Of a stretch of 64,000 nucleotides of DNA, positions 3,887-60,192 are shown in pieces. The stretch's first letter is position 1. Every line of letters starts with the position of its first letter. The position numbers were made by a program, and so were the translations under genes. Origin of the DNA: Acidobacteriota bacterium (lineage in GTDB: Bacteria > Acidobacteriota > Thermoanaerobaculia > Gp7-AA8); the NCBI GenBank assembly GCA_021325515.1, contig JAJPHC010000030.1, forward strand, positions 78,976 to 142,975, written 5' to 3'. Under the pieces are notes generated by a model. It was not told the origin of the DNA, did no database searches, and saw nothing but the letters and a program-made list of their open reading frames with translations.

Positions 3887-4332
3887 CCCTGTCAGCGCTG
3901 TTTCGTTATCCCGAGCGGCCGGTGGCCGCCGGCGAGCACGATCTCGAGCGTTTCGACGCCGAGATGTCCGCGCTCGACCTGCAGACGCAGCAATCGCTCT
4001 ACACCTCGACGTTCGATCTCGCGCCGTCGTGCACGCCGTACCTCGGCGTGCATCTCTTCGGCGATGAGAATGCCGATCGCGCGCGGCTCATGGTCGGTCT
4101 GCGCCTCGCCTACAAGCGAGCCGGCATGAGTGAAGGCGGAGAGCTGCCCGATCACATCGCCGAGGTGCTCGACTTCGACGCACGCGGCGTGGAGGAGAAG
4201 GAGGAGCTGCGCCGGCTCATCCTCGTCCCCGCGTTGACGAAGATGAATGAGCTGCTCCAGCCGACGTCGAATCCCTACAGACATCTCGTCGCGGCAACGC
4301 TGCACCGAATGGAGGAATCCCGTGAGTCGTGA
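3883..4332 (+). CDS. narJ: Nitrate reductase assembly chaperone (delta subunit), copy 1
   Basis: A GTG start lies in-frame after a GGGAGGA ribosome-binding site. The protein is ~150 aa with the NarJ motifs TSTFDL and NPYRHL. Its position between narH and narI fits. Confidence 0.8.
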   Translation: MTLSALFRYPERPVAAGEHDLERFDAEMSALDLQTQQSLYTSTFDLAPSCTPYLGVHLFGDENADRARLMVGLRLAYKRAGMSEGGELPDHIAEVLDFDARGVEEKEELRRLILVPALTKMNELLQPTSNPYRHLVAATLHRMEESRES

Positions 4333-16823: not shown

Positions 16824-16903
16824 ATAGGACCTATGGGACCTATGGGACCTATAGGGAGCCACCCATAGGTCCTATAGGTCCCATAAGGTCCCATAAGTCC
16901 CAT
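16824..16903. repeat. 80-bp imperfect palindrome built from tandem octamers (GGACCTAT x3 ... ATAGGTCC-like x4) in the narG2-narH2 spacer
   Basis: Read directly: ataggacctatgggacctatgggacctataggga gccacc cataggtcctataggtcccataaggtcccataagtcccat. It is absent from operon copy 1, where narG and narH overlap. Confidence 0.6.
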
Positions 16904-16925
16904 CGCTGCCACGAGGAGCCAATTA

Positions 16926-31979: not shown

Positions 31980-33986
31980 ATGATCTCCGGCTGGCGGCGG
32001 GGTGATCCAGAGGAAGCGCTCCTCAGACGCGAATGGCTCGTGACCAACGGTCTCGGCGGCTATGCGAGCGGCACGATCGGTGGTGCGTGCACGCGCCGCT
32101 TCCACGGCTTTCTCATCGCGGCAATGCCCGCGCCTCTCGGCCGCGTGATGATGTTCAATCACCTCGAAGAGCATCTCGTCATCAACGGAGAGACCACCTA
32201 CCGGCTGAGCGCGGACGAGCACAACACGCCGTCGCCGATCCGCTATCCGACGTCCGACATCCTCGAACAGCTCGTGCTCGAGAACGGGTTGCCCGTCTGG
32301 CACTACGCACGCGACGGCGTGCACATCGAGAAGCGCGTCGTGATGCCGCACCTGCAGAACACGACGTACATCATCTACAGACTCGTGACCGCGCCGCACG
32401 CAGTCACTCTCGAGCTGCGGCCCTCGCTGCACTTCCGCCCGCACGAAGGTCTTCTGACGGAGGAGGTTTCGCAGAAGTGGACGATCACGCCGCATGAGAA
32501 CGGAGTCGAGATCAGCGACGGCCGTCCCTACCCTCCACTCCGCCTCCAATTCCTGGGGCGCGGCGAGTTGCATCGCGAGCAGATCGTGCACAACGGCGTG
32601 ATCTATCGCATCGAGCGCGCCCGCGGCTATGAGTTCGAAGGCGGGCTGTGGAGTCCCGGCGTGATTCGCTTCACGATCGAGCCGGGGCATGAAGTGGGTC
32701 TGATCGCCTCCGTGGAACCGTGGGATGCGATTCGCGCCATGGACGCCGGCGATGCCTGCGTCGCCGAACACGCGCGTCGCGGCAAACTGAAGACGATCGC
32801 GAAGAGTGCGAACGGCGACGAGTTTCGCAGCCAGCTCGTGCTCGCCGCGGACCAGTTCCTCATCTCACCCCGCACGCGTGCCGCCGATGAAGCGCGCGCG
32901 CACGCCACGGGCGACGACCCGCGGACGGTGATCGCCGGCTATCACTGGTTCACCGACTGGGGCCGCGACACGATGATCAGCCTCGAGGGACTCACGCTCG
33001 TCACGGGACGCCATCGCGAAGCCGGCAACATCCTCCGCACGTTCGCCTCCTACATCCGCGACGGCCTCATTCCCAACATGTTCCCCGAAGGTGAGCATGA
33101 AGGTCTGTACCACACCGCCGACGCCACGATGTGGTTCTTCCACGCCGTGGCGCGCTACATCCGCTACACGAACGACCGCGACACACTGCGGCAACTCCTG
33201 CCGAAGATGGTCGAGATCATCGACCATCACATTCGCGGCACGCGCTTCAACATCCATGTCGATCCCGAGGATGGGCTGCTGTCGCAGGGGGCGGAGGGAT
33301 ATCAACTGACGTGGATGGATGCGAAGGTCGGCGACTGGGTCGTCACGCCGCGGCGCGGCAAGGCGGTGGAGATCAACGCGCTGTATTACAACGCCCTCTG
33401 CATCCTGGAGGGGTTTCTGCGCGAGGAGGGCGATGAGGCCAACGCCGCACGCATGCAGCAATACGCGGCGAAGGCCCGCGCGTCGTTCAATCAGCGCTTC
33501 TGGAACGAAGAAGGTCAATATCTTTACGATGTGGTCGATCCGAACGACCCCGCCTGCCGTCCCAATCAGATCTTCGCCATCTCACTCGACCATCCCGTGC
33601 TGAATGAATCGAGGTGGAAGCGCGTGATCGGCGTCGTCGAGGAGCGGCTGCTCACGCCGTACGGGCTTCGCTCGCTGAGCCGCGATCATCCCGATTACAA
33701 GAAGGCCTACGACGGCGATCTGCGCGCCCGCGATGCGGCGTATCACCAGGGGACGGTGTGGGGCTGGCTCATCGGCCCCTTCATCGATGCCTGGCGGAAG
33801 GTGCATCCCGGCGAGGATGCGAGCCGGTTTCTCGCAGCATTTCCGAAGCATATGGAAGAAGCCTGCATCGGCACGATCGCCGAGATCTTCGACGCCGAGC
33901 CGCCGTATCACCCCAGAGGATGCGCAGCGCAGGCGTGGAGTGTGGCGGAAGTGTTGCGGTGTGCTGGTGAGTCGGTCACGCGGTAG
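31980..33986 (+). CDS. Glycogen-debranching-enzyme-type glycoside hydrolase (amylo-alpha-1,6-glucosidase GDE_C family with N-terminal GDE_N domain)
   Basis: The N-terminus (LVTNGLGGYASGTIGGACTRRFHGFLIA) and C-terminus (YHQGTVWGWLIGPFIDAW) are typical of archaeal-type GDE proteins. Confidence 0.65.
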   Translation: MISGWRRGDPEEALLRREWLVTNGLGGYASGTIGGACTRRFHGFLIAAMPAPLGRVMMFNHLEEHLVINGETTYRLSADEHNTPSPIRYPTSDILEQLVLENGLPVWHYARDGVHIEKRVVMPHLQNTTYIIYRLVTAPHAVTLELRPSLHFRPHEGLLTEEVSQKWTITPHENGVEISDGRPYPPLRLQFLGRGELHREQIVHNGVIYRIERARGYEFEGGLWSPGVIRFTIEPGHEVGLIASVEPWDAIRAMDAGDACVAEHARRGKLKTIAKSANGDEFRSQLVLAADQFLISPRTRAADEARAHATGDDPRTVIAGYHWFTDWGRDTMISLEGLTLVTGRHREAGNILRTFASYIRDGLIPNMFPEGEHEGLYHTADATMWFFHAVARYIRYTNDRDTLRQLLPKMVEIIDHHIRGTRFNIHVDPEDGLLSQGAEGYQLTWMDAKVGDWVVTPRRGKAVEINALYYNALCILEGFLREEGDEANAARMQQYAAKARASFNQRFWNEEGQYLYDVVDPNDPACRPNQIFAISLDHPVLNESRWKRVIGVVEERLLTPYGLRSLSRDHPDYKKAYDGDLRARDAAYHQGTVWGWLIGPFIDAWRKVHPGEDASRFLAAFPKHMEEACIGTIAEIFDAEPPYHPRGCAAQAWSVAEVLRCAGESVTR

Positions 33987-34099
33987 CGCGGGCCCGCGGG
34001 CTCGCGGTGGAAACGGCGACGAAGAACTCGAAATCGCTTAAACCGCGTACCCGCGTAACCGCGAGCCCGCGCAACCACCTACGAGCCCGCGCAACCACA
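33986..34099. repeat. GC-rich intergenic repeat cluster: palindrome GCGGGCCCGC, then two direct copies of CGAGCCCGCGCAACCAC
   Basis: Read directly. The same 17-mer family recurs (reverse-complemented) at 51553-51620 and in a related form at 53886-53947. Confidence 0.5.
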
Positions 34100-34462
34100 T
34101 TACTTCTTCTCCGCCGCCCACTTCATCCAGAGATCGGTGATGTCGAAGTAGACCGTGTGCTGCGAATGATCCGGCAGCTCGACGGTGATGATGTCGTAGT
34201 GGCGGTCGTTCTGATGAGCGACGGCGAACTTCAGGCGCCGGAAACGGCCGAAGCGGTCGTAGATCCAGTTGTTCTCGAACTTGACTTCGTCCCCTTCCAC
34301 GGGAACCGGGACGGCGGTCGTCGTGGAATCGCCGTACGTATCCTTCAGCGCTTCGGCGGAGACGGCCGGAGGTGCAGCGGCTGGTTGGGGCTTCGGCGCC
34401 GGAGCCGGTTTCGGCGTGGCGCAGGCGATGGTGAGGAGGATGAGGATCAGAGCGCGCTTCAT
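34100..34462 (-). CDS. Small Pro/Ala-rich lipoprotein (hypothetical)
   Basis: Lipoprotein signal MKRALILILLTIAC. The start was taken at the internal ATG. Confidence 0.4.
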   Translation of the reverse strand: MKRALILILLTIACATPKPAPAPKPQPAAAPPAVSAEALKDTYGDSTTTAVPVPVEGDEVKFENNWIYDRFGRFRRLKFAVAHQNDRHYDIITVELPDHSQHTVYFDITDLWMKWAAEKK

Positions 34463-36457: not shown

Positions 36458-38172
36458 CACCGTACCCCCTCCGGGAAGGGAATGATGGGATCGACGTCGA
36501 CCGGCAGGTCCTTCGCCGCTTCGAGCGCCCCCTTCAACTCCTCCGGCATCCTGTCGTACTTCGCAAACCACGCCTCGGCCCGCGCGCGGTCGCCCGCGGC
36601 CTCGATCTCCAGCAGCTCTTTCGTCAGCGCGGCGATCGAGTCCGGCATCTTCTCGAGCGCCATTTCATATCGCCCGCTGCTGTTGCGCGTGATCGCGCCC
36701 CGTTCACGCAGGAAGTTGAACTCCATCATCTCTGCGCGGCCATGCGCCTCGCCGACGCCAAAGCGAACCGTGCGGAAGATGCCGGCAACGTACGACGCGT
36801 AGTACTCGTTGAGGCGCTCCTGCGGCAGCGCGCCATGCTCGACGAGCCACTTCAGACCGTACATGCCGGTGATGTCGGCCTTGGCCTCTTCCAGCGCGGA
36901 GTAGATCGGGCCGACGGCGGCGCGAATGTCAACCTGTTGACCATTCTGGCGCGCGAAAGCCGGGCCCAGCCCGTGACAGATCTCGTGCATCATCACCACG
37001 GTCAGCGTCCCCTCGGCCGACGCCATCGCGGCCTGGTCCTGCCGCATCACCCGCTTCGCGACGGGCAAGATCACATCGTTCACGCGCGCATCCATGTAGT
37101 TCTTGAAGAAGATCTTCTTGCTGCCCGCCTGCTGGTGGATCTTCGGATCATTCGGCAGATTGTCGGCAACCGCCTGGTAGCCGTGCCGCAGATCGCCGGC
37201 GCGGAACGGCGTATCCATCACTTCCATCGGCGACGCGTGGCCATGTTTCGACGGCCGGTCCTCGGCGGGCAGCGGAAGCGCGTCCTGAATGTCCGGAACG
37301 TACTTCTGAAACACGGCGAGCTTCCGGCTCTCCGGCTCGTTGCGGATCATCACCGCCGCGCCGTACGAGGTCTTCACGCCGAGGAGGCCGTCGAGGTAGG
37401 TTTCGTAGGGAGCGAAGATGACATCGATCTTCGGGTCTTTCATCTCCGCGACCCACACCAGATCGCTCGGATAGTAGTTGTCGTCGAGCAGCGCCTTGGC
37501 GCGGAGGCGGAGGAACCTGGCGAACGTCCTGTCCGGCGTGGCCGCAGCGGCGTTGCGCAAGTGCGAGGCCGCGCTGACGAGCCACTTGTGGTACTTCACG
37601 TGATAGGGCGTCGTCTTGAGCTTCAGCGGATCGCGGCTCACTAGTTCGACGACGGTGCGTTCGTCGTAGATCGCCTTCTTCTGTTCCGGATGTGCGGCGA
37701 CGTACTTCTCGATGTCCTCGCGGGTGAGCCCTTCGGGATAGAGGCTGCGGCCGGGCGGCATCGGCTCGCTGCCGTAGAACGGGCGATTCTCGTCGATCTG
37801 ATCGTAGTGGCTGCCCTGAATCCAGAGGTAGTGGTGCAGCGCCGGGTTAGCCTTGGCCGTCGCGTGATAGAGCTCGATGTCCGAGGGGGTCGCCTGCCGC
37901 CAGTAGATCTCTTCCAGATCGCGGCTTGCGGCAATCAGCTCCTGAACGGCCTTCCGTTCACCGGCAGAAAGATCGGAGCCGGTGAAGGTCATCTCCACCT
38001 TCTGAAACTTCTGCAGACGTTGTTCGATGTCGGGAGCAACCTTCGACGGATCGTAAGGCGCCGCGGCGAGCAGCAGGACCGCTGATAGGGCGAGAAGGCC
38101 AAATTGAAACTTGAACATTGAAAATTGAAAATTGGCCAGCGACTTCTTCATGCGCGAGATTGTAGTCCGCAC
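36457..38172 (-). CDS. Secreted zinc metallopeptidase, M49 (dipeptidyl-peptidase III)-like with an HEXXH variant
   Basis: An HEICHG motif and a downstream EEAKAD motif match the two DPP3 zinc-ligand blocks (HEXXGH / EECRAE). The signal peptide is partly encoded by heptamer-repeat DNA (FQFSMFKFQF). Confidence 0.5.
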   Translation of the reverse strand: MRTTISRMKKSLANFQFSMFKFQFGLLALSAVLLLAAAPYDPSKVAPDIEQRLQKFQKVEMTFTGSDLSAGERKAVQELIAASRDLEEIYWRQATPSDIELYHATAKANPALHHYLWIQGSHYDQIDENRPFYGSEPMPPGRSLYPEGLTREDIEKYVAAHPEQKKAIYDERTVVELVSRDPLKLKTTPYHVKYHKWLVSAASHLRNAAAATPDRTFARFLRLRAKALLDDNYYPSDLVWVAEMKDPKIDVIFAPYETYLDGLLGVKTSYGAAVMIRNEPESRKLAVFQKYVPDIQDALPLPAEDRPSKHGHASPMEVMDTPFRAGDLRHGYQAVADNLPNDPKIHQQAGSKKIFFKNYMDARVNDVILPVAKRVMRQDQAAMASAEGTLTVVMMHEICHGLGPAFARQNGQQVDIRAAVGPIYSALEEAKADITGMYGLKWLVEHGALPQERLNEYYASYVAGIFRTVRFGVGEAHGRAEMMEFNFLRERGAITRNSSGRYEMALEKMPDSIAALTKELLEIEAAGDRARAEAWFAKYDRMPEELKGALEAAKDLPVDVDPIIPFPEGVR

Positions 38173-38192
38173 ACTGGCATTTTCAATTTTGC

Positions 38193-38320
38193 TCCACGCT
38201 CGTGCTCGCTAGTGCGAAATTGAAAATTGAAAATTGAAAATTGAAAACGAAAGGCGGATCTTGCTTCGTTTTTCAATTTTCAATTTTCAATTTTCAATTT
38301 CGAAGCTCCACGCTCGTGCC
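38193..38320. repeat. MITE-like element. A near-perfect ~38-bp-arm hairpin built from tandem AATTGAA heptamers, flanked by 15-bp direct repeats GCTCCACGCTCGTGC
   Basis: Read directly: gaaattgaaaattgaaaattgaaaattgaaaacgaaag gcggatcttg cttcgtttttcaattttcaattttcaattttcaatttcg. The direct repeats lie at 38193-38207 and 38306-38320. The element overlaps the stop codon of the PAS-GGDEF-EAL gene. Confidence 0.6.
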
Positions 38321-41300
38321 CGCCTGCAGCAGTGTCTCGAAAGCTTCGGCCGACACCGGCCTGCTGATCAGGAAGCCCTGCGCTGCCGTGCACTGTTCGC
38401 GCTGAAGGAACGCGAGCTGCTCCTGCGTCTCCACTCCTTCCGCCACCACGCGCAGCCGCAGCGCCCGCGCCATCGAGATCACGGCCGAGATGATCGCGCC
38501 GTCGCTGGAATCGGCGGAGAGATCGCGCACGAAGTCCTGATCGATCTTCACAGTGTCGATCGGGAAGCGCTTGAGATAGTTCAGCGAGGAGTAGCCGGTG
38601 CCGAAGTCATCAATGGAGATGCGGATGCCCATCTCCTTCAACCGCTTCATGATGGCCAGCGACAGATCGGCGTTCTGCATCGCGGTCGACTCGGTGATCT
38701 CGAGGTCGAGCAGCTCCGGCGGGAAACCGGTCTCTTCGATGACGCGCTCCACCATGCGCGTGAGATCGCGCTGCTGGAACTGGCGCGGCGAGAGGTTCAC
38801 CGCGATGCGCAGCCCGCCGTGCCCGGCGTCATGCCACTGCTTCATCTGCGCGCAGGCGGTGCGCAATACCCACTCCCCGATCGGAATGATGAGCCGCGTC
38901 TCCTCGGCGATGGGGATGAACTCGTCGGGCGGCATCATTCCGAATTCCGGATGGCTCCAGCGGATCAGCGCCTCGGCTCCCGAGATCGTGCCGGTGGCAA
39001 GATCGATCATCGGCTGGTAGTGCACGATGAACTCCTTGCGGTCGAATGCGTGATGCAGGCTGTTCTCGAGCGTCAGCCGCTCCGCCCCTTCCATCACCGT
39101 CACGAACTGGAAATTGTTGCGCCCCATCTCCTTGGCGCGATACATCGCGCGATCGGCGTTCTTGAGGAGCGCTTCCGCATCCTCTCCATCGTCGGGAAAC
39201 AGCGCGATGCCGAGCGAGGTGGTGACGAAGAGCTCGTGGCGCTCGACGACGAACGGCTGGCCGATCGAATCGAGCACTTTCTGCGCGACTCCGATCGCCG
39301 CGCGCCGGTCGGCAACATCGCTGAGCAGCACGGTGAACTCGTCTCCCCCCATCCGCGCGACCGTATCCTCGGCCCGCACGCAGTTGACGAGGCGATCCGC
39401 CACCGCCTGCAGCAGCCCGTCGCCCACCGTGTGGCCGAGTGTGTCGTTCACGAGCTTGAACTGATCGAGATCGAGGAACATGACCGCGGCGACGCGTCCG
39501 CTGCGCCGGGCGCGCGCCAGTGCGACCGTGATGCGGTCGCGGAACAGCAGGCGGTTCGGCAGGCTGGTCAGAGCATCGTGATACGCCTGCCACTCCATCT
39601 TTTCCTGCGCGGTCTTGCGATCGGTGATGTCGATGATCGTCCCTTCGATCACATTCCCATCGAGCACCGCGACGTTCTCGAGAACCCACACGGGAGAGCC
39701 GTCCCGCCGCTTCATCCGCCTCTCGACGTTGGTCAGCGACCCCTGCTCCTGCAGCGCCTGCAAGTACCTCTTCCGGTCATCCGGCTCGAAGTAAAGATCG
39801 AGTGCGGATGCCACGCGCATCAGCTCTTCATTCGAGTCGTAGCCGAAGATGCGCGCCATCGCGTCATTGCATTCGAGCATGCGCCCTTCGACGGTGCTGC
39901 GGAAGACGCCTGCGAGATTGCGCTCGAAAAGGAGCCGGAAGCGCGCCTCGTTCGATTTGCGCTCCGTCACATCGCGCGCGATGCCCTGCACTCCGATGCT
40001 CTTGCCGTCGCGGAACACGAGGCGTGTATTGACCTCGACCGGAATGCGCCGGCCGTCCTTGGCCTGCAGATCGATCTCGTACGATGTGGTGTGGGTTTCG
40101 TCGGCGACCTTGCGCCGGAAATTCGAAGCCGCACGCTCGACGTCATCGGGTGCAATGAACTGTTGGATCGTCATCGAGAGCGCTTCGTCGAGCGTGTAGC
40201 CGGTCGTGCGAAGACCGGCCAGATTCATCGACGTGATGCGTCCCTCGAGGTCGTGCGTGTAGACGATGTCGTTCGCGTTCTCGAAAAGATCGCGGTAGCG
40301 CGTCTCGCTCTGCCGCAGCGAAGCCTCGATCGCTTTTCGTTCAGAGATGTCGCGGGCCACGACCTGAATGGCCGGCTTCCCATCGATCTGAAAGGAGATC
40401 GCTGCGACTTCGACATCGACGGCGGTGCCATCGCGCTTGAGGAACTTCTCTTCGATCAGCGGCACCTCGCGTCCTCGCGACAGCACGCGCAGCCGGCTTC
40501 GCACCGTCGTGCGATAGTCGGGATGCACGAGCGTCATGATGTCGCGGCCCACGAGCTCTTCCGCTGACGCGGCTCCAATCAGCCTCACCGCGGCGGTGTT
40601 GACGAACGTCAGCTTGCCTTCCTGATGCACGAAGATCGCATCAGGGCTCAGCTCCACCACGTTCCGATACCGCTCCTCGCTCTCGCGCAGTCTCTCTTCG
40701 GCGCCCCTCCGCTCGGTGACGTCCTGCGCGATGACGAGCCGCGAGCGCTTTTCACCGAAGAGGAACTCGAACGAGGTGATCTCGACGTCGATGATCTTTC
40801 CGCTGCGGATGCGATGGCGGAAGAGCGCGCGATCGCGCTTCTCCGGCGGATTACGCAATGCCTCTTCCATCTGCGGCAGATCTTCCTGCGGGCGGATGTC
40901 GAGGATCGTCATCTCCATGAATTCTTCGCGGAGGTAGCCGTAGTGTGCGATCGCCGCATCGTTCACTGCGATGAACCGCAAGGTGTCGAAGTCGTAGACC
41001 CACATCGGCAGCGGATTCGCGTCGAAGAGCGTGCGGTAGCGCGTCTCGCTTTCGCGCAGCGCTTCTTCCGCCCGCTTGCGCTCCGTGTAGTCCGTCGCGA
41101 CGTAGATCGCGGCGACGGGAGTGCCATCCGCCTGGCGCACGAATGACGACTGCGCGAGCACGTCGAGCGCCGAGCCGTCCGCCGTCCGCCAGAGCATCGT
41201 CTGCTCCAGCACGCCGGTGCTCTCCAGAATCTGCGCGGTGCTCGTCGCTTCGTTGCGCTGGATGATGTTGCGGATGTGGAGGCCGACCATCGTCGGCGCG

Positions 41301-42091
41301 TCGAAGCCGAGCATCGCGCCGGCCGCGCGGTTCACGACGCGGATCTTGCCATCCATGTCGACGACGAGCACCGCCCCCTTCATCGTCTCGAGGATCTGTC
41401 CCGCCGCGAACTCCGGGGTGAGGTCGATGACTTCGTAATTCCAGACCGCGCGCGCCGCGACGATGGAGAACGCGAGCACGGCCATGTAGCCGACCGGGTA
41501 CATGTCGATCCCCATCGAAGGGAAGACATCGACGAGCGCGAGACTGCCGACGGCGAGCGCGAGCAGCATGAGCCCCGTTCGCTCGCGCGTCTGCCCCTCC
41601 GATTGCTGATGCGCATTCCAGAGAAGGCGCATTGCATAAAGGAGGATGAGGCCGTAGGTCGCCGCCCAGATGAAATTCAAGGGCGAGCCGTTGGCGTACC
41701 AGCCCCAGGAGTAGTGGCGCACGGCCGGGATGAGAATCGGCGACGCTGCGCCGATGAGCGCCACCGTGATGCAGAAGAACCAGGAGAGGCCGAGGCGGAC
41801 TCGCAGGCGCTGGCGGGTGCCGGTGTAGACCGAGACGAAATTCAGAATGATCGCCGGAATGAGCGCGGCTGCCACATGGCCGGCACGCGCCCACAACAGA
41901 GCGACATGCGGCGAGAGCGACGAATACATCAGCGCGAAACAGCCAAGCCACGCCGCGGCACTCGCTGTGATTAATGAGAAGAGGATGCTGCCGCGCGCGC
42001 CGCGCCCCCGGAGGGCGACACCAGCGCCGAGACAGAAGGCGACGGCTGCCGTGATCGCAGTCGCAAGCGCCAGAGGGTTCGCCGCGTACAT
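38294..42091 (-). CDS. Membrane-anchored multi-PAS / GGDEF / EAL c-di-GMP signalling protein
   Basis: An N-terminal polytopic segment is followed by at least four PAS-like repeats. A GGDEF domain (RMGGDEFTVLL) and an EAL domain (EALIRW...DDFGTGYSSL...KIDQ) follow. The protein is 1265 aa. Confidence 0.85.
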   Translation of the reverse strand: MYAANPLALATAITAAVAFCLGAGVALRGRGARGSILFSLITASAAAWLGCFALMYSSLSPHVALLWARAGHVAAALIPAIILNFVSVYTGTRQRLRVRLGLSWFFCITVALIGAASPILIPAVRHYSWGWYANGSPLNFIWAATYGLILLYAMRLLWNAHQQSEGQTRERTGLMLLALAVGSLALVDVFPSMGIDMYPVGYMAVLAFSIVAARAVWNYEVIDLTPEFAAGQILETMKGAVLVVDMDGKIRVVNRAAGAMLGFDAPTMVGLHIRNIIQRNEATSTAQILESTGVLEQTMLWRTADGSALDVLAQSSFVRQADGTPVAAIYVATDYTERKRAEEALRESETRYRTLFDANPLPMWVYDFDTLRFIAVNDAAIAHYGYLREEFMEMTILDIRPQEDLPQMEEALRNPPEKRDRALFRHRIRSGKIIDVEITSFEFLFGEKRSRLVIAQDVTERRGAEERLRESEERYRNVVELSPDAIFVHQEGKLTFVNTAAVRLIGAASAEELVGRDIMTLVHPDYRTTVRSRLRVLSRGREVPLIEEKFLKRDGTAVDVEVAAISFQIDGKPAIQVVARDISERKAIEASLRQSETRYRDLFENANDIVYTHDLEGRITSMNLAGLRTTGYTLDEALSMTIQQFIAPDDVERAASNFRRKVADETHTTSYEIDLQAKDGRRIPVEVNTRLVFRDGKSIGVQGIARDVTERKSNEARFRLLFERNLAGVFRSTVEGRMLECNDAMARIFGYDSNEELMRVASALDLYFEPDDRKRYLQALQEQGSLTNVERRMKRRDGSPVWVLENVAVLDGNVIEGTIIDITDRKTAQEKMEWQAYHDALTSLPNRLLFRDRITVALARARRSGRVAAVMFLDLDQFKLVNDTLGHTVGDGLLQAVADRLVNCVRAEDTVARMGGDEFTVLLSDVADRRAAIGVAQKVLDSIGQPFVVERHELFVTTSLGIALFPDDGEDAEALLKNADRAMYRAKEMGRNNFQFVTVMEGAERLTLENSLHHAFDRKEFIVHYQPMIDLATGTISGAEALIRWSHPEFGMMPPDEFIPIAEETRLIIPIGEWVLRTACAQMKQWHDAGHGGLRIAVNLSPRQFQQRDLTRMVERVIEETGFPPELLDLEITESTAMQNADLSLAIMKRLKEMGIRISIDDFGTGYSSLNYLKRFPIDTVKIDQDFVRDLSADSSDGAIISAVISMARALRLRVVAEGVETQEQLAFLQREQCTAAQGFLISRPVSAEAFETLLQAGTSVELRN

Positions 42092-51552: not shown

Positions 51553-51620
51553 TTGTCGCGGTTGCGGGGGCTCGCGGGCTCTGGGTTGCGCGGGCTCGCG
51601 GGTGCGCGGCGTCAACTACC
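51553..51620. repeat. GC-rich intergenic repeats: two direct copies of GGTTGCG(C/G)GGGCTCGCGGG (reverse complement of the 34062-34099 repeat)
   Basis: Read directly. Confidence 0.5.
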
Positions 51621-51626
51621 AAGTAA

Positions 51627-51689
51627 GCCTAGCGCCTAGCGCCTAGCGCCTAGCGCCCAGCGCCCAGCGCCTAGCGCCCAGCGCCCAGA
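51627..51689. repeat. Perfect tandem heptanucleotide microsatellite (GCCYAGC)9
   Basis: gcctagc x4, gcccagc x2, gcctagc, gcccagc, gcccaga. In total 63 nt between convergent genes. Confidence 0.7.
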
Positions 51690-57190: not shown

Positions 57191-57958
57191 ATGTCCGTAC
57201 GTGCCGCTCAGGCGCTTTATCACCGGTTGATTCCCGCCTCGATCCGCAATCCGATCGGCGCATTCCGGCGCCGCCTCGGCGATCGTGTGCGCCGGGCGAG
57301 CGTGCCGTATCCGCTTCCCCCTGCGCGGCTTCTGCGCAATGTGCAGCTCACGCCCTACGTCAAGGAGTACCTCTCGGTGGGCCGCAAGTCGGCCGAATCG
57401 ATCATCGCCGCGCTCGCTTCGCGGAGCCCGGCTCGCGTGCTCGATTTCGGATGCGGCTCGGCACGCACGCTGCGGCATCTGCGCAACACGGGATGGGAGC
57501 TATACGGCTGCGACATCGACGCGGACGCGATCGCGTGGTCGCGCAGCGCACTTCCCTTCGCGCGCTTCGATGTCAACGGCGCGGAACCGCCACTCCCCTA
57601 CGCCGGCGCGTTGTTCGACGCCGTCTACACGATCTCCGTCTTCACGCATTTCCCGCCGGGACAGCAGGAGCGCTGGGCTGCCGAGATGGCGCGCGTGCTG
57701 CGCACCGGCGGAACGCTCGTCGTCTCGAGCGTTGGCTTCACGGCACTCCAGGCATTCGCGGGCAGCGCGGAGAATCTCGCGCAACTGGAGGCGGAGGGAA
57801 CCTTGTTCATCCGCGGCACCGAGGAGTTCAACGCGAGCGGCATGTACCACGCGCGGGCCGGACTCGAGCGGCTCTTCGGCCCTCACTTCACGATGGATGT
57901 CCACGAGGAGCGCGGGCTGGATGGCTTTCAGGATCTGACGATCTTCACGCGCCGGTAG
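57191..57958 (+). CDS. Class I SAM-dependent methyltransferase
   Basis: Motif I VLDFGCGSARTL. The start was set at the internal ATG. The 3' end overlaps the convergent GT2 gene by 14 nt. Confidence 0.65.
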   Translation: MSVRAAQALYHRLIPASIRNPIGAFRRRLGDRVRRASVPYPLPPARLLRNVQLTPYVKEYLSVGRKSAESIIAALASRSPARVLDFGCGSARTLRHLRNTGWELYGCDIDADAIAWSRSALPFARFDVNGAEPPLPYAGALFDAVYTISVFTHFPPGQQERWAAEMARVLRTGGTLVVSSVGFTALQAFAGSAENLAQLEAEGTLFIRGTEEFNASGMYHARAGLERLFGPHFTMDVHEERGLDGFQDLTIFTRR

Positions 57959-58844
57959 TGCTCTCTCCTCGAATCAGTCCCCAGACGATTCCGCAGAAAT
58001 ACGTCGCGTGATGTGCCGCGAAGGCGGCCGGGATCACCGGCCAGTAGCGCAGCGGCAGGCGCGTATGGCGTGCGCCGAGAATGAGCGTGGCGATGACGTA
58101 GAGCGGCAGGGACACGGGAAGGGCGAGCAATCCGATCAGACCCAGCAGCAGGAACGCGCGCACTTTCGGCGGTCTGATTCCGCGCTCGCGCATCATCCGT
58201 CCGGTCTTCACGCGATAACGCCAGCGCTGCGCGAGATACGCGCCGGGAAACGCGCGGCGGCGATGGAAGACTCGCACCGTGTCGCTGTAGACGGCGTGCG
58301 GCAGCAGTTGCGTGAGCAATGCGGTGTCCTCGCCGATGTAGCCGATCGATTCGTCGAAGCCGGTGAATGCCGAGCGGCGCACGAAGAGATTCACCAGCGC
58401 GATATCGCTGGGATGCTGCAGAGGGAACGTTCCGCGCCGGTTCTCATGCGCCGCGACGCCGCTGCCGATGAGCGGCGTGGCGAGGAGCGTGTCGGAGATC
58501 AATTCGGCAATCGACGAGTCCGGCGGCGCGGGATCGGGACCGCCCAGCGCGAGCACGTCGGGATGCTCGTCGAGATACCGCACGGCATTCGCCAGCCAGT
58601 GCGGATCGGCGATCGCATCGTCGTCGATGAACGCCAGCAGCTCCCCCTCGGCGACGGAAGCTGCTCGATTTCTTCGAGTTGCGGGATTACGATTCGCCTC
58701 GACGACGTTTCGTACGCCGGTTCGTGCACACTCGGGAAGAGGCGCCGCCGACACGACGATCAACTCGTACGGAAATGCGGCTTCCTGATTGAGTACCGAC
58801 GCGATGGCTCGTTCCGCGTCGCCGCCGACCCGCTCCACTGGCAT
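57945..58844 (-). CDS. Family 2 glycosyltransferase (GT-A); N-terminus abuts or overlaps the heptamer-repeat element
   Basis: VSVIMPV(E)R...LNQ...ELIVVSAA...FIDDDA (DxD). The only in-frame ATG is the M in VSVIMPV. Upstream in-frame sequence is the repeat translated as FNFQFSIS. Confidence 0.65.
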   Translation of the reverse strand: MPVERVGGDAERAIASVLNQEAAFPYELIVVSAAPLPECARTGVRNVVEANRNPATRRNRAASVAEGELLAFIDDDAIADPHWLANAVRYLDEHPDVLALGGPDPAPPDSSIAELISDTLLATPLIGSGVAAHENRRGTFPLQHPSDIALVNLFVRRSAFTGFDESIGYIGEDTALLTQLLPHAVYSDTVRVFHRRRAFPGAYLAQRWRYRVKTGRMMRERGIRPPKVRAFLLLGLIGLLALPVSLPLYVIATLILGARHTRLPLRYWPVIPAAFAAHHATYFCGIVWGLIRGESTTGA

Positions 58845-58864
58845 GATGACGGAGACTCGAAGAG

Positions 58865-58941
58865 TCGAAATTGAAAATTGAAAATTGAAAATTGAAAATT
58901 CGCTCCGTCCCCCATTTTCAATTTTCAATTTCCAATTTTCA
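58865..58941. repeat. Heptamer (GAAAATT)n palindromic hairpin, second copy of the 38216-38302 element family, filling the divergent GT2/GT2 intergenic region
   Basis: Read directly: tcgaaattgaaaattgaaaattgaaaat tcgctccgtccccc attttcaattttcaatttccaattttcaatttcga. Confidence 0.6.
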
Positions 58942-58968
58942 ATTTCGATTCGCGAAGAACTGAGAAAA

Positions 58969-60192
58969 ATGAAGCTCATTGTTCAAATCCCTGCTTTCAA
59001 TGAAGAGGGCACGATCGCGGCCACGCTCCGCGACATCCCGAAGAAGATCGACGGCATCACCTCGATCGAAACGCTGGTCATCGATGATGGCAGCAGCGAC
59101 AAGACGGTGGACGCAGCGCGCAAGGCCGGCGCGAATCACGTCGTGCAGCTGAAGACGCATCGCGGACTCTCCTCCGCCTTCGTCGCCGGCATCGACGCCG
59201 CGCTTCGCCTCGGCGCCGACGTCATCGTCAACACCGACGCCGACAATCAGTACGCCGCCGCCGACATCGCCAAGCTCGTCGCGCCGATCGTCAAGGGCAC
59301 GGCGGAAGTCGTCGTCGGCGATCGCGAGGTGGCGAATTCGCCGCACATGTCCGGATTCAAGCGCATGCTGCAGCGCCTTGGAAGCTGGACCGTGAGCCTC
59401 GCCTCCGGCATCGACGTCGCCGACGTCACCAGCGGCTTCCGCGCCTTCTCGCGCGAAGCGGCGATGCGGATCAACGTCTTCAACCCATTCACCTACACGC
59501 TCGAGACCATCATTCAATCCGGCAACCACAACCTCGGCGTGCAATCGGTCGCGGTGCGGACGAACGCGCCGACGCGTCCCTCGCGTCTCTATCGCGGCAT
59601 CGGGACGTACCTGCGCAAGTCGGTCGCGACGATCTTCCGCATCTCCACCGTCTATCGCCCCCTCAAGACGTTTGCCTGGCTCGGCTTCGCACTCGTCTTC
59701 GCCGGCGTTCTCCTCGGAATGCGCTTCGTCTGGGCATTCTTCTACGGAAATCGCGCCGGCCATGTGCAGTCGCTCATCCTCTGCGCCGTCTTTCTCGTCA
59801 CCGGATTCCAGACGTGGCTCATCGCGCTCGTCGCGGACCTCATCGCCGTGAATCGACGGATCAGCGAAGACGTGCTGCTGCGGTTGAAGCGGATGGAGAT
59901 GGCGCAGGAGCAGCGGAGGCCGCGGCGCGATCGCGATCGCGATCGAGACCGCGACAGGGAGCGCGAGCAGCGACCGCGTCCCCAACCAGCCGTTGCACCT
60001 CCGCCCCCGAAGGAGCCGGAGACGCAGTGGGTCTGGCTGCACGAGCCGGAGCAGGCGGAAGAGATTCCGGCCGTCGAAGAGAGTCCGGCGCCGGGCGGAG
60101 CACCCAGCGGAGGACGCAGGCGCCGCAGACGGCGCGGTGGTCCGCGCAATCATCCGGAGCTGCCGGGCAATCGCGGCAAGCACCTCGAGTAG
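58969..60192 (+). CDS. GT2 polyprenyl-phosphate sugar synthase-like glycosyltransferase (DPM1/GtrB-like) with C-terminal TM helices and an Arg/Asp-rich disordered tail
   Basis: MKLIVQIPAFNEEGTIAATL...LVIDDGSSDKT...VNTDADNQY (DPM1-like blocks). The tail is RRPRRDRDRDRDRDREREQRPRP...GGRRRRRRRGGPR. Confidence 0.75.
   Translation: MKLIVQIPAFNEEGTIAATLRDIPKKIDGITSIETLVIDDGSSDKTVDAARKAGANHVVQLKTHRGLSSAFVAGIDAALRLGADVIVNTDADNQYAAADIAKLVAPIVKGTAEVVVGDREVANSPHMSGFKRMLQRLGSWTVSLASGIDVADVTSGFRAFSREAAMRINVFNPFTYTLETIIQSGNHNLGVQSVAVRTNAPTRPSRLYRGIGTYLRKSVATIFRISTVYRPLKTFAWLGFALVFAGVLLGMRFVWAFFYGNRAGHVQSLILCAVFLVTGFQTWLIALVADLIAVNRRISEDVLLRLKRMEMAQEQRRPRRDRDRDRDRDREREQRPRPQPAVAPPPPKEPETQWVWLHEPEQAEEIPAVEESPAPGGAPSGGRRRRRRRGGPRNHPELPGNRGKHLE

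Follow-up and report, generated by a model that had tools for sequence, protein, structure and literature searches.

The closest known relatives of the element described here, an AT-rich palindrome of GAAAATT heptamers between two divergent family 2 glycosyltransferase (GT2) genes of a Thermoanaerobaculia bacterium (Acidobacteriota), are the GGGAATC inverted heptamer repeats of Xanthomonas and the cyanobacterial STRRs. Most Xanthomonas arrays are paired, as 70-75 inverted 'convergent' pairs per genome, with a preference for four units; about 90% are intergenic, they lie near the stop codon of the upstream gene or overlap it, and few are found between divergent genes. They show no association with insertion sequences (IS), their length and sequence vary between close species, and formation of G-quadruplexes (G4) has been proposed for them (Rehm et al. 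2015, PLoS One, PMC4692102). The STRRs are heptanucleotide repeats, as cited from Mazel 1990 in that article. Direct repeats of TAACTGA are found in Beggiatoaceae, Cyanobacteria and Bacteroidetes, with 169 direct sets against one indirect set in BOGUAY (MacGregor 2015, PMC4679880). A further point of comparison is provided by the REP, BIME and REPIN sequences (Bertels and Rainey 2011, PMC3116915; PMC3337134; Di Nocera 2013, PMC3733652). The DNA analysed here, referred to as the window, is a 64-kb stretch (positions 78,976 to 142,975 of contig JAJPHC010000030.1) with about 64% GC throughout. The palindrome in it is one copy of a dispersed family and is ordinary for its genome.

An inverted-repeat search placed the element at 58862-58951, with two 38-nt arms that are 95% complementary, a 14-nt loop and a total length of 90 nt. 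An earlier sequence-only reading had placed it at 58865-58941 and had it fill essentially all of a 125-nt spacer between the two genes. The mirrored repeat and its occupation of the divergent junction are real, while its true limits are those given above and the spacer, measured from the Met of the leftward gene's IMPV motif (58844-58842) to the + strand ATG at 58969, is 124 nt long, of which the palindrome covers 90. Tandem Repeats Finder (TRF) reports (AAATTGA)x4.7 at 58868-58900 with 100% matches and (ATTTTCA)x4.6 at 58914-58945 with 92%. On the + strand, inspected from 58500 to 59300, the palindrome region reads tcGAAATTGAAAATTGAAAATTGAAAATTGAAAATT-cgctccgtccccc-ATTTTCAATTTTCAATTTCCAATTTTCAATTTCGa, and the GAAAATT arm precedes its mirror on both strands. 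Its parts are as follows.

58862..58899, no strand assigned: left arm, GAGTC + (GAAAATT)~4.7, G/A-rich on the + strand
58900..58913, no strand assigned: loop TCGCTCCGTCCCCC, unique and GC-rich, without a relative elsewhere in the window
58914..58951, no strand assigned: right arm, (AATTTTC)~4.6 + GATTC, complementary to the left arm
58932, minus strand: sole mismatch within the repeat part of the arms, C for T on the + strand
58871..58899, + strand: sigma70-like TTGAAA-17-GAAAAT, pointing across the loop to the + strand GT2
58914..58942, minus strand: mirror sigma70-like TTGAAA-17-GAAAAT, pointing to the minus-strand GT2

Because its surroundings have about 64% GC, the AT-rich palindrome is conspicuous. 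A 21-mer of three units, allowed up to 3 mismatches, had 14 matches in the window, whereas 100 shuffles gave none; no GAAAATT palindrome is expected by chance, and the element is highly non-random. Folding of 58850-58968, which takes in 119 nt of the 124-nt spacer, gave -44.7 kcal/mol (z = -7.05) as RNA and -32.7 kcal/mol (z = -7.55) as DNA. The open reading frames (ORFs) on both sides read through the arms as FSIFNFQFSIS, as had been noted before, and the earlier suggestion that the palindrome is the second copy of a family holds: a sister copy lies 20.6 kb away, at 38215-38302, and a third, degenerate copy lies beside it at 38101-38190.

38215..38302, no strand assigned: perfect sister copy, with 33-nt arms and a 22-nt loop
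38101..38134, minus strand: degenerate (AATTTTC)n arm, in frame within the signal peptide of an M49-like peptidase; remnant of its partner arm at 38176-38190

The family extends well beyond the window. A scan with GAAAATTGAAAATT-N5-35-ATTTTCAATTTTC against contigs from one genome per species found at least 118 loci carrying the GAAAATT element. Among the matches listed, about 43 belong to Acidobacteriota (Thermoanaerobaculia and others), where one metagenome-assembled genome (MAG) often has several, about 52 to Bacteroidota, including cultured Parabacteroides, Caecibacteroides and Subsaxibacter, and 8 to Patescibacteria-type genomes; single matches fall in Planctomycetota, Chloroflexota, Desulfobacterales, Nitrospirae, Opitutales, Firmicutes, Melainabacteria and Proteobacteria. 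In GC-rich genomes the arm length has a sharp mode at 30 nt (AATTGAAAATTGAAAATTGAAAATTGAAAA) and unrelated loci share a common end phase (AATTG...); the loops are 8-30 nt long (mode 21), 67% GC and unique, and the flanks are unrelated. In Thermoanaerobaculia, mirrored elements of this design occur about once every 10 kb. No GAAAATT element was found among 2.9 million viral contigs in either arm order, which speaks against a phage origin, the swapped-order scan of these contigs being uninformative on polarity. No Rfam 15 family matched the element (best score 40 bits against a threshold of 90, the strong matches all being generic AU-rich miRNA hairpin models), and a literature search with the element sequence returned only two unrelated eukaryotic papers.

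GAAAATT is itself one unit of a wider class. When TRF was run on 763 kb of GC-rich loci and complementary arrays were paired, 117 mirrored arrays with about four units per arm were obtained, of which 100 have period 7 and 11 have period 8, with about one real case of period 9. They are built from more than 30 repeat units, including GAAGGCA, GAACGAT, GAACGCA, GAGAATT, GAGGATT, GTTGTCG, GTTGCTG, GAGGTTC, GAGGCAT and GGTTGCCC, and several of these unit families are multi-copy within one MAG. The arrays are polar: G exceeds C in the first arm of 50 of the 59 mirrored arrays with units other than GAAAATT, and no GAAAATT pair in swapped arm order was seen in the GC-rich loci surveyed. Gene context, assigned with a simple codon-usage gene caller checked against the window, showed nearly all mirrored arrays to be intergenic and tight against gene ends, the median distance to the upstream stop being about 5 nt and that to the start that follows about 20 nt; the stop is often the array's first TGA. 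With the GT2 junction excluded, GAAAATT elements occupy 30 tandem, 10 divergent and 3 convergent junctions, and arrays of other units 33, 3 and 3, respectively, against a background of 347 tandem, 76 divergent and 63 convergent junctions.

Comparison of the GT2 junction across relatives, which had been suggested together with the original observation, revealed element-free alleles. A scan of metagenomes with the leftward GT2 yielded 80 loci (denoted by L numbers), from which we extracted the stretch running from the CAT of the MKLIVQIPAFNE gene to the VSVIMPV block. About 29 loci are free of any element: 24 read CAT-gcg-GTG-AAA, with the native GTG present and the two starts only 3 nt apart, and 5 have a 6-nt gap. 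Another 29 or so carry a mirrored array of 50-180 nt at this junction, built from at least 8 different units. GAAAATT is present in the window and at L119/L123, L121, L132, L140/141 and L157/183, GAGAATT at L122 and GAGGATT at L147; further units include TTGAGCNN, AGTNGATT, GAGGCAT, CGTTGNT, AGCTNNC, CTTAGAG and GAGAGCC. At L132 the junction reads CAT-ag[GAATTG...CAATTTC]g-GTG-AAG, the array being inserted flush within the 3-nt gap and the native start retained. These loci show that the window copy, or its ancestor, sits where the divergent starts are otherwise 3 nt apart.

Two further features of these loci were recorded. The spacer between the MKL-gene start and the arm is 21-23 nt long in six orthologous elements, conserved in length but, at about 30% identity, not in sequence (window 58850-58861 and 58952-58968; L119, L121, L122, L140 and L147); that of L119 is T-rich and resembles a decayed arm, and L132 and L157 have no spacer. 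A second hot spot is the junction between the GT2 stop and the radical-SAM start, where L119 (3910-4074) and L122 (3952-4081) hold 100-135 nt with other mirrored arrays, and where the element-free loci compared (L120, L125, L127, L128, L134 and L173) have a 4-nt gene overlap.

The arms of orthologous elements have been kept complementary through sequence change. Eight orthologous elements align in one register with four units per arm, and RNAalifold predicts 31 pairs, of which 8 show A-U to G-C changes on both sides. The compensatory changes recur at the same position of every unit in L122 and L147. One AATTCTC unit persists in L147 among units of AATCCTC, as would be expected if GAAAATT was swept stepwise to GAGAATT and then to GAGGATT. 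Between lineages, arm identity is 92-98%, against a third-codon-position identity of 0.52-0.65 in the flanking genes and about 30% identity in the adjacent 22-nt spacer. Arm identity so far above that of the flanks shows that pairing and uniform units are being actively maintained, which is not true of the promoter-like hexamers, as these are absent from the GAGAATT and GAGGATT variants. Slippage combined with hairpin-templated correction of one arm by the other would give this pairing pattern without selection, and so would selection on an RNA or DNA hairpin. Quasi-palindrome correction is established in E. coli.

The genes on either side of the element are the following.

57945..58844, minus strand: leftward GT2 core ORF, 299 aa from the Met of IMPV; P0001 of the protein collection
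58969..60192, + strand: divergent GT2 (MKLIVQIPAFNE...), with its start codon intact, 17 nt from the palindrome

The leftward protein has its homologs among GT2 glycosyltransferases (PF00535) encoded in Thermoanaerobaculia and Acidobacteriota MAGs, and the order YchF, hydrolase, GT2, divergent GT2, radical SAM, GT1, radical SAM/SPASM is kept in relatives. Most of 120 homologs start M/V-K-VSVIMPV and about 40 are called from MPVER, while in about 12 an N-terminal extension corresponds to the translated arm, as in P0099 (MVRLETFSIFNFQFSISLK-ASVIMPV) and P0103 (MTDFSILNSQFSIPTPK-VSVIMPV). In the nearest element-free relative, L124 (87% identity), the junction reads CAT gca GTG CGA GTC TCA; its equivalent in the window reads ...CAATTTCGACT CTT CGA GTC TCC, and that in L119 CTT CGG GTG TCG. 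The GTG-Lys start of the leftward GT2 is thus replaced by CTT CGA in the window (58862-58857), and the native GTG is absent from the window lineage, because GTG CGA GTC of L124 stands where the window has CTT CGA GTC. The proposal that the element displaced the gene's native start or promoter is therefore supported for the start, both by the M/V-K-VSVIMPV orthologs and by the CAT-gcg-GTG-AAA-GTC loci. A small separate hairpin, GACTC-TTC-GAGTC at 58851-58863 (minus strand GACTCTTCGAGTC), lies between the palindrome and VSVIMPV over the position of the lost start codon, and L119 has GACCC-TTC-GGGTG at the matching position (~2978-2996), which is partly compensatory.

The sequence-only reading had also held that the IMPV Met is the only in-frame start. 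This is incorrect, as the GT2 frame has further start codons, TTG at 58928-58926 and ATG at 58979-58977, and is free of stops from there to the core. The candidate starts of the leftward GT2 are hence ATG 58844, TTG 58928, which falls in the last units of the far arm, and ATG 58979. Initiation at ATG 58844 would cost most of the first beta-strand of the GT-A fold. On the minus strand, the mismatch at 58932 converts the arm's only in-frame TGA to TGG (58934-58932) and opens ORF 57945..58979; it is only because of this C that the frame from ATG 58979 is open, and by our own estimate the chance that a random substitution would remove the in-frame TGA is about 8%. The in-frame TTG of the far arm, from which the GT2 frame stays open in all 8 orthologous elements, weakly suggests that the arm is sometimes translated; across the family as a whole, no frame-specific signal was found.

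Taken together, the data lead us to regard the element as probably belonging to a dispersed, non-coding type of hairpin repeat comparable to REP, MITE (miniature inverted-repeat transposable element) or foldback sequences, each copy having two arrays of about four heptamers around a unique loop of 13-22 nt. Such a copy would have arrived as a pre-formed arm-loop-arm cassette, through a trans-acting or template-switching route that leaves no target duplication, and its complementarity and unit uniformity would then be kept by slippage and quasi-palindrome correction, with no need for a locus-specific function. Local effects would be side effects: a transcript crossing the element in either direction would carry a hairpin of -45 kcal/mol, the leftward GT2 would start at the truncated IMPV Met or in or beyond the element (TTG 58928 or ATG 58979), with the arm read as ...FSIFNFQFSIS..., and the arms would incidentally bear weak sigma70-like hexamers toward both genes.

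Several observations weigh against this interpretation. No transposase, target-site duplication or conserved interior was found, RAYT not having been sought beyond the window. No loop is common to different loci beyond orthologous ones, although power was low with 2-6 copies per genome sampled, and since the loops are unrelated and are not copies of the flanks, copy-and-paste of a whole element is not demonstrated. In a neighbour-joining (NJ) tree of the GT2 protein, element-free and filled alleles are interspersed, which is compatible with repeated gain or with precise loss, so that the element-free state is not fixed as ancestral. The recurrence of one unit in distant phyla, together with the strict polarity, could reflect a function or a dedicated generating mechanism instead of neutral hitch-hiking. 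Finally, the GT2 frame is open from an in-frame TTG in the far arm in 8 of 8 orthologous elements at the junction, lineages that are not independent, and this open frame and the stop-removing sole mismatch hint at selection on the window copy.

Other accounts of the loops and flanks were examined in the course of this work. Direct flank repeats or target-site duplications show no excess, the exception being a 15-nt repeat at the 38.2-kb copy. The loops have no excess similarity to the target or flanks, and homology of all GAAAATT loops at the GT2 junction has no statistical support except for close pairs. Nor do they look like relics of terminator hairpins whose A- and T-tracts expanded into arms, since their self-pairing shows no excess (mean z = -0.08). 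Neither do they hold the native start of the downstream gene: there is no frame enrichment (7/60 vs 7/60 and 6/60), and the idea is true only at the peptidase locus.

A more active origin would be a DNA-installing system that sets polar arm-loop-arm cassettes at gene boundaries, each with arms of about four units and a loop of its own, and without duplicating the target. This appears unlikely, though we would not dismiss it. The agent could be a structure-specific transposase or a templated polymerase that extends 3' ends; with the G-rich strand pointing 5' to 3' inward from either side, the cassettes would have the polarity of two fused telomeres. If this were true, the unit families would represent different templates, and GAAAATT across phyla the horizontal spread of the system. 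At the opposite extreme, the arrays could be microsatellites formed in situ by local slippage, perhaps favouring 7-nt units, and fold-back copying, with no mobility and with convergent recurrence of GAAAATT. The change of units in place from GAAAATT to GAGAATT to GAGGATT, with the intermediate unit left in L147, agrees with such a process, as do the unique loops and the lack of target duplication, and heptamers are over-represented in many bacteria, for which slippage has been suggested as an explanation (Mrazek 2007, cited in PMC4692102). Nevertheless, dozens of unrelated junctions and genomes share the GAAAATT unit, the 30-nt arm and the end phase, single MAGs carry multiple copies of each of several unit families, the element-free alleles with their 3-nt spacers and 4-nt overlaps offer no seed sequence, and the arm lengths are tightly clustered, unlike those of slippage-driven tracts. 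We therefore hold formation in situ to be very unlikely.

Three functional readings of the element were also considered. If mRNA structure were selected, the hairpin might protect mRNA 3' ends, be cut by RNase III, insulate transcription or translation, or act as a weak bidirectional terminator, and the order of a purine-rich 5' arm and a pyrimidine-rich 3' arm would be set by a weak RNA-DNA hybrid as the hairpin closes. The retention of pairing through compensatory changes favours this, and E. coli REPs within 15 nt of stop codons reportedly affect translation and mRNA stability, in work attributed to Liang, Rudd and Deutscher in 2015 and to Newbury and colleagues in 1987. The polarity is strong (50 vs 7), as in Xanthomonas, whose pairs are likewise 'always convergent', and the arms adjoin upstream stops, as they do in Xanthomonas, where transcripts tend to start or stop at the repeats (PMC4692102). 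Templated correction between arms could keep the pairing without selection, however, and arrays are not enriched between convergent genes (6/82 vs 13% of junctions). They also lie within operons such as narG-narH, as well as between divergent starts, positions at which genes clearly under purifying selection would be silenced by an efficient terminator. The terminator scan was negative at the GT2 element: no intrinsic terminator was found in its AT-rich, 38-bp stem, and the family is not enriched at convergent ends. Selection for an RNA hairpin is unlikely.

It is somewhat less probable still that the element serves at this locus as a bidirectional promoter cassette, in which each arm fires across the loop to give both GT2s AU-rich, hairpin-free leaders and the overlapping face-to-face promoters would make GT2 expression mutually exclusive. 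A promoter scan found exactly two sites, one per arm, each aimed at the correct, far-side gene with a 9/12 match, against 0.2 in shuffles, and the GT2-directed match is present in 6/6 GAAAATT lineages at the junction. GAAAATT elements are more often placed divergently than those of other units (10/43 vs 3/39, p = 0.07), and promoters of element-free alleles must sit inside the opposite gene, so that an insertion would need to supply new ones. Against this, the match is complete in only about 27% of GAAAATT arms elsewhere and is not enriched toward starts; in most 30-nt arms, which end in GAAAA+N, the second hexamer has no T at position 6; the GAGAATT and GAGGATT variants lose the match and keep the pairing, and the other unit families and the element-free alleles at the junction have no such hexamers. 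As a general function, selected promoters in the arms were rejected, full matches being found in 12/50 arms toward gene starts and 11/36 toward gene 3' ends. TTGAAA-17-GAAAAT arises in the arms because of the unit sequence itself, and the hexamers are probably a by-product of it that could matter locally; an arm promoter is incompatible with a start at TTG 58928, since the predicted -10 hexamer is downstream of this codon. The regulatory cruciform or operator suggested initially is not supported as a function specific to this locus: like architecture occurs at many unrelated junctions, mostly within operons, relatives hold other repeat units at the GT2 junction, and the hexamers are neither enriched toward starts nor retained in the pairing-preserving variants. 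Glycosyltransferases are classic phase-variable genes, and gain or loss of 7-nt units could in principle shift the frame between an element-borne start and a surface-glycan GT2 and so turn the enzyme on and off. The heptamer tract does lie between candidate starts (an arm-loop ATG, TTG 58928 and ATG 58979) and the GT2 core, and the arm-loop ATG is in frame in L121, L122, L140 and L157 and out of frame in the window, L119, L132 and L147. Such a switch is nonetheless barely credible. All 8 orthologous elements keep about four units per arm despite 70-87% protein divergence, so the tract is not hypervariable, and it is this constancy of unit number and register that argues against phase variation; the family adjoins genes of all kinds, mostly downstream of them, and Rehm et al. 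obtained a negative result on the same idea for Xanthomonas (PMC4692102).

The window holds further repeats of related design. A GGDEF/EAL gene (38294..42091, minus strand) has its TGA stop in the outermost unit of the perfect copy at 38215-38302. This copy is flanked by a 15-nt direct repeat, GCTCCACGCTCGTGC, at 38191-38205 and 38305-38319, which consists of the last codons of the GGDEF/EAL gene and the beginning of the arm, in duplicate; this suggests a local duplication beside the older, decayed element. The element-free junction L204, orthologous to the 38.2-kb site, measures only 29 nt. The peptidase that has taken in the degenerate arm begins MKKSLA-NFQFSMFKFQF-GLLAL (38101-38151, minus strand) and reads MKKSLA-NFQFSMFKFQF-GLLALSAVLLLAAA-PYDP, its counterpart in a 90%-identical sister genome (P0121 / L203:276-380) reads MKKPR-NFPFSIFNFQF-ALAIAAPLLLAAA-PYDP, and MKKLLLALLSLPLLAAA-PYDP is found in other orthologs; the arm in the window owes an ATG and a Lys codon to two substitutions. 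A TACAAT motif is conserved 8-9 nt before the peptidase ATG, without a Shine-Dalgarno sequence (38153-38175, minus strand; L203:258-275; L205:1480-1500), which suggests that the peptidase mRNA is leaderless or near-leaderless. If leaderless mRNAs are common in the clade, the effect of insertions at start codons would change. In the sister genome the peptidase upstream region (L203:1-250) is replaced by the 3' end of an ORF and two CCTTCTCCCC-N-GGGGAGAAGG palindromes, a different repeat type. By eye, we take that ORF end to resemble the C-terminus of an IS630-type transposase.

Mirrored arrays with other units are present as well. In the nitrate reductase operon, the narG-narH gap (16824-16904) contains a mirrored 9-mer array, (GGACCTATG)x3 / (CCCATAGGT)x4.6, and the related unit ATGGGACCC occupies the GT2-radical-SAM junction of L122 at ~3965-4030. 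At 33966-34103, between the convergent genes 31980..33986 (+) and 34100..34462 (-), mirrored 8-mers CGCGGGNN / NNCCCGCG are arranged with the G-rich arm leading. Between another pair of convergent genes, a G-rich 8-mer array (GGGCTCGC-like) at 51560-51609 is followed by (GCCTAGC)x8.4 at 51627-51688; these arrays are not complementary, yet they keep the order of G-rich then C-rich.

Although the window element is ordinary for its genome, the class to which it belongs is abundant and present in several phyla. The GT2 junction represents an unusually clean natural experiment, with a 3-nt element-free allele, at least 8 units among the filled alleles and unit-wide compensatory change. There are also consequences for annotation: the elements move or supply stops and starts and are sometimes translated, as in the ...FSIFNFQFSI... 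extension and the signal-peptide arm, and gene starts near them therefore need checking before they are trusted.

Among known systems, the GGGAATC repeats of Xanthomonas and the GAAAATT elements have in common the heptamer, the arms of about four units, the inverted pairs with the G-rich array first on each strand, and dispersed intergenic copies close to ORF ends. They differ in that GAAAATT is AT-rich in a genome of 64% GC and has a single G, with no G-quadruplex tracts, in that each lineage holds dozens of unit families, and in that the window copy lies between divergent start codons. Since GAAAATT cannot form G4, the four-unit rule is not explained by the G4 formation proposed for Xanthomonas, and since it lacks G-tracts, the G4 feature does not define the wider class; the preference for four units and the strict polarity of the arms, which had already been noted in Xanthomonas, have to be explained without recourse to G4. 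With the STRR and TAACTGA repeats, GAAAATT shares dispersed intergenic tandem heptamers and the presence of one unit across distant phyla. Those repeats often lie a few nt from starts and change in 7-nt indel steps, and relatives free of them have shorter intergenic regions (PMC4679880). Unlike the direct TAACTGA arrays, nearly every array here has a mirrored partner about 21 nt away.

The REP and REPIN sequences resemble the elements described here as short intergenic palindromes with inverted arms around a less conserved spacer, found within operons and by stops and lacking target duplication; they reach hundreds of copies per genome, persist for long periods and are mobilised by the RAYT transposase (Y1). 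Their arms are imperfect palindromes with a GTAG or CGTC tag, whereas GAAAATT arms consist of simple tandem heptamers and have neither an internal palindrome nor a tag. MITEs such as the Correia elements of Neisseria are small non-autonomous inverted repeats at gene junctions that may bring promoters, terminators or coding segments; they have a conserved interior and target-site duplications, and GAAAATT copies show neither. In the eukaryotic foldback (FB) transposons, arms of short tandem repeats surround a heterogeneous centre, on a kilobase scale and in some cases with a transposase, and the likeness of the GAAAATT element to them is one of architecture only. What is new here is the GAAAATT family of Thermoanaerobaculia; the kind of repeat that it represents, inverted pairs of heptamer arrays, is already known.

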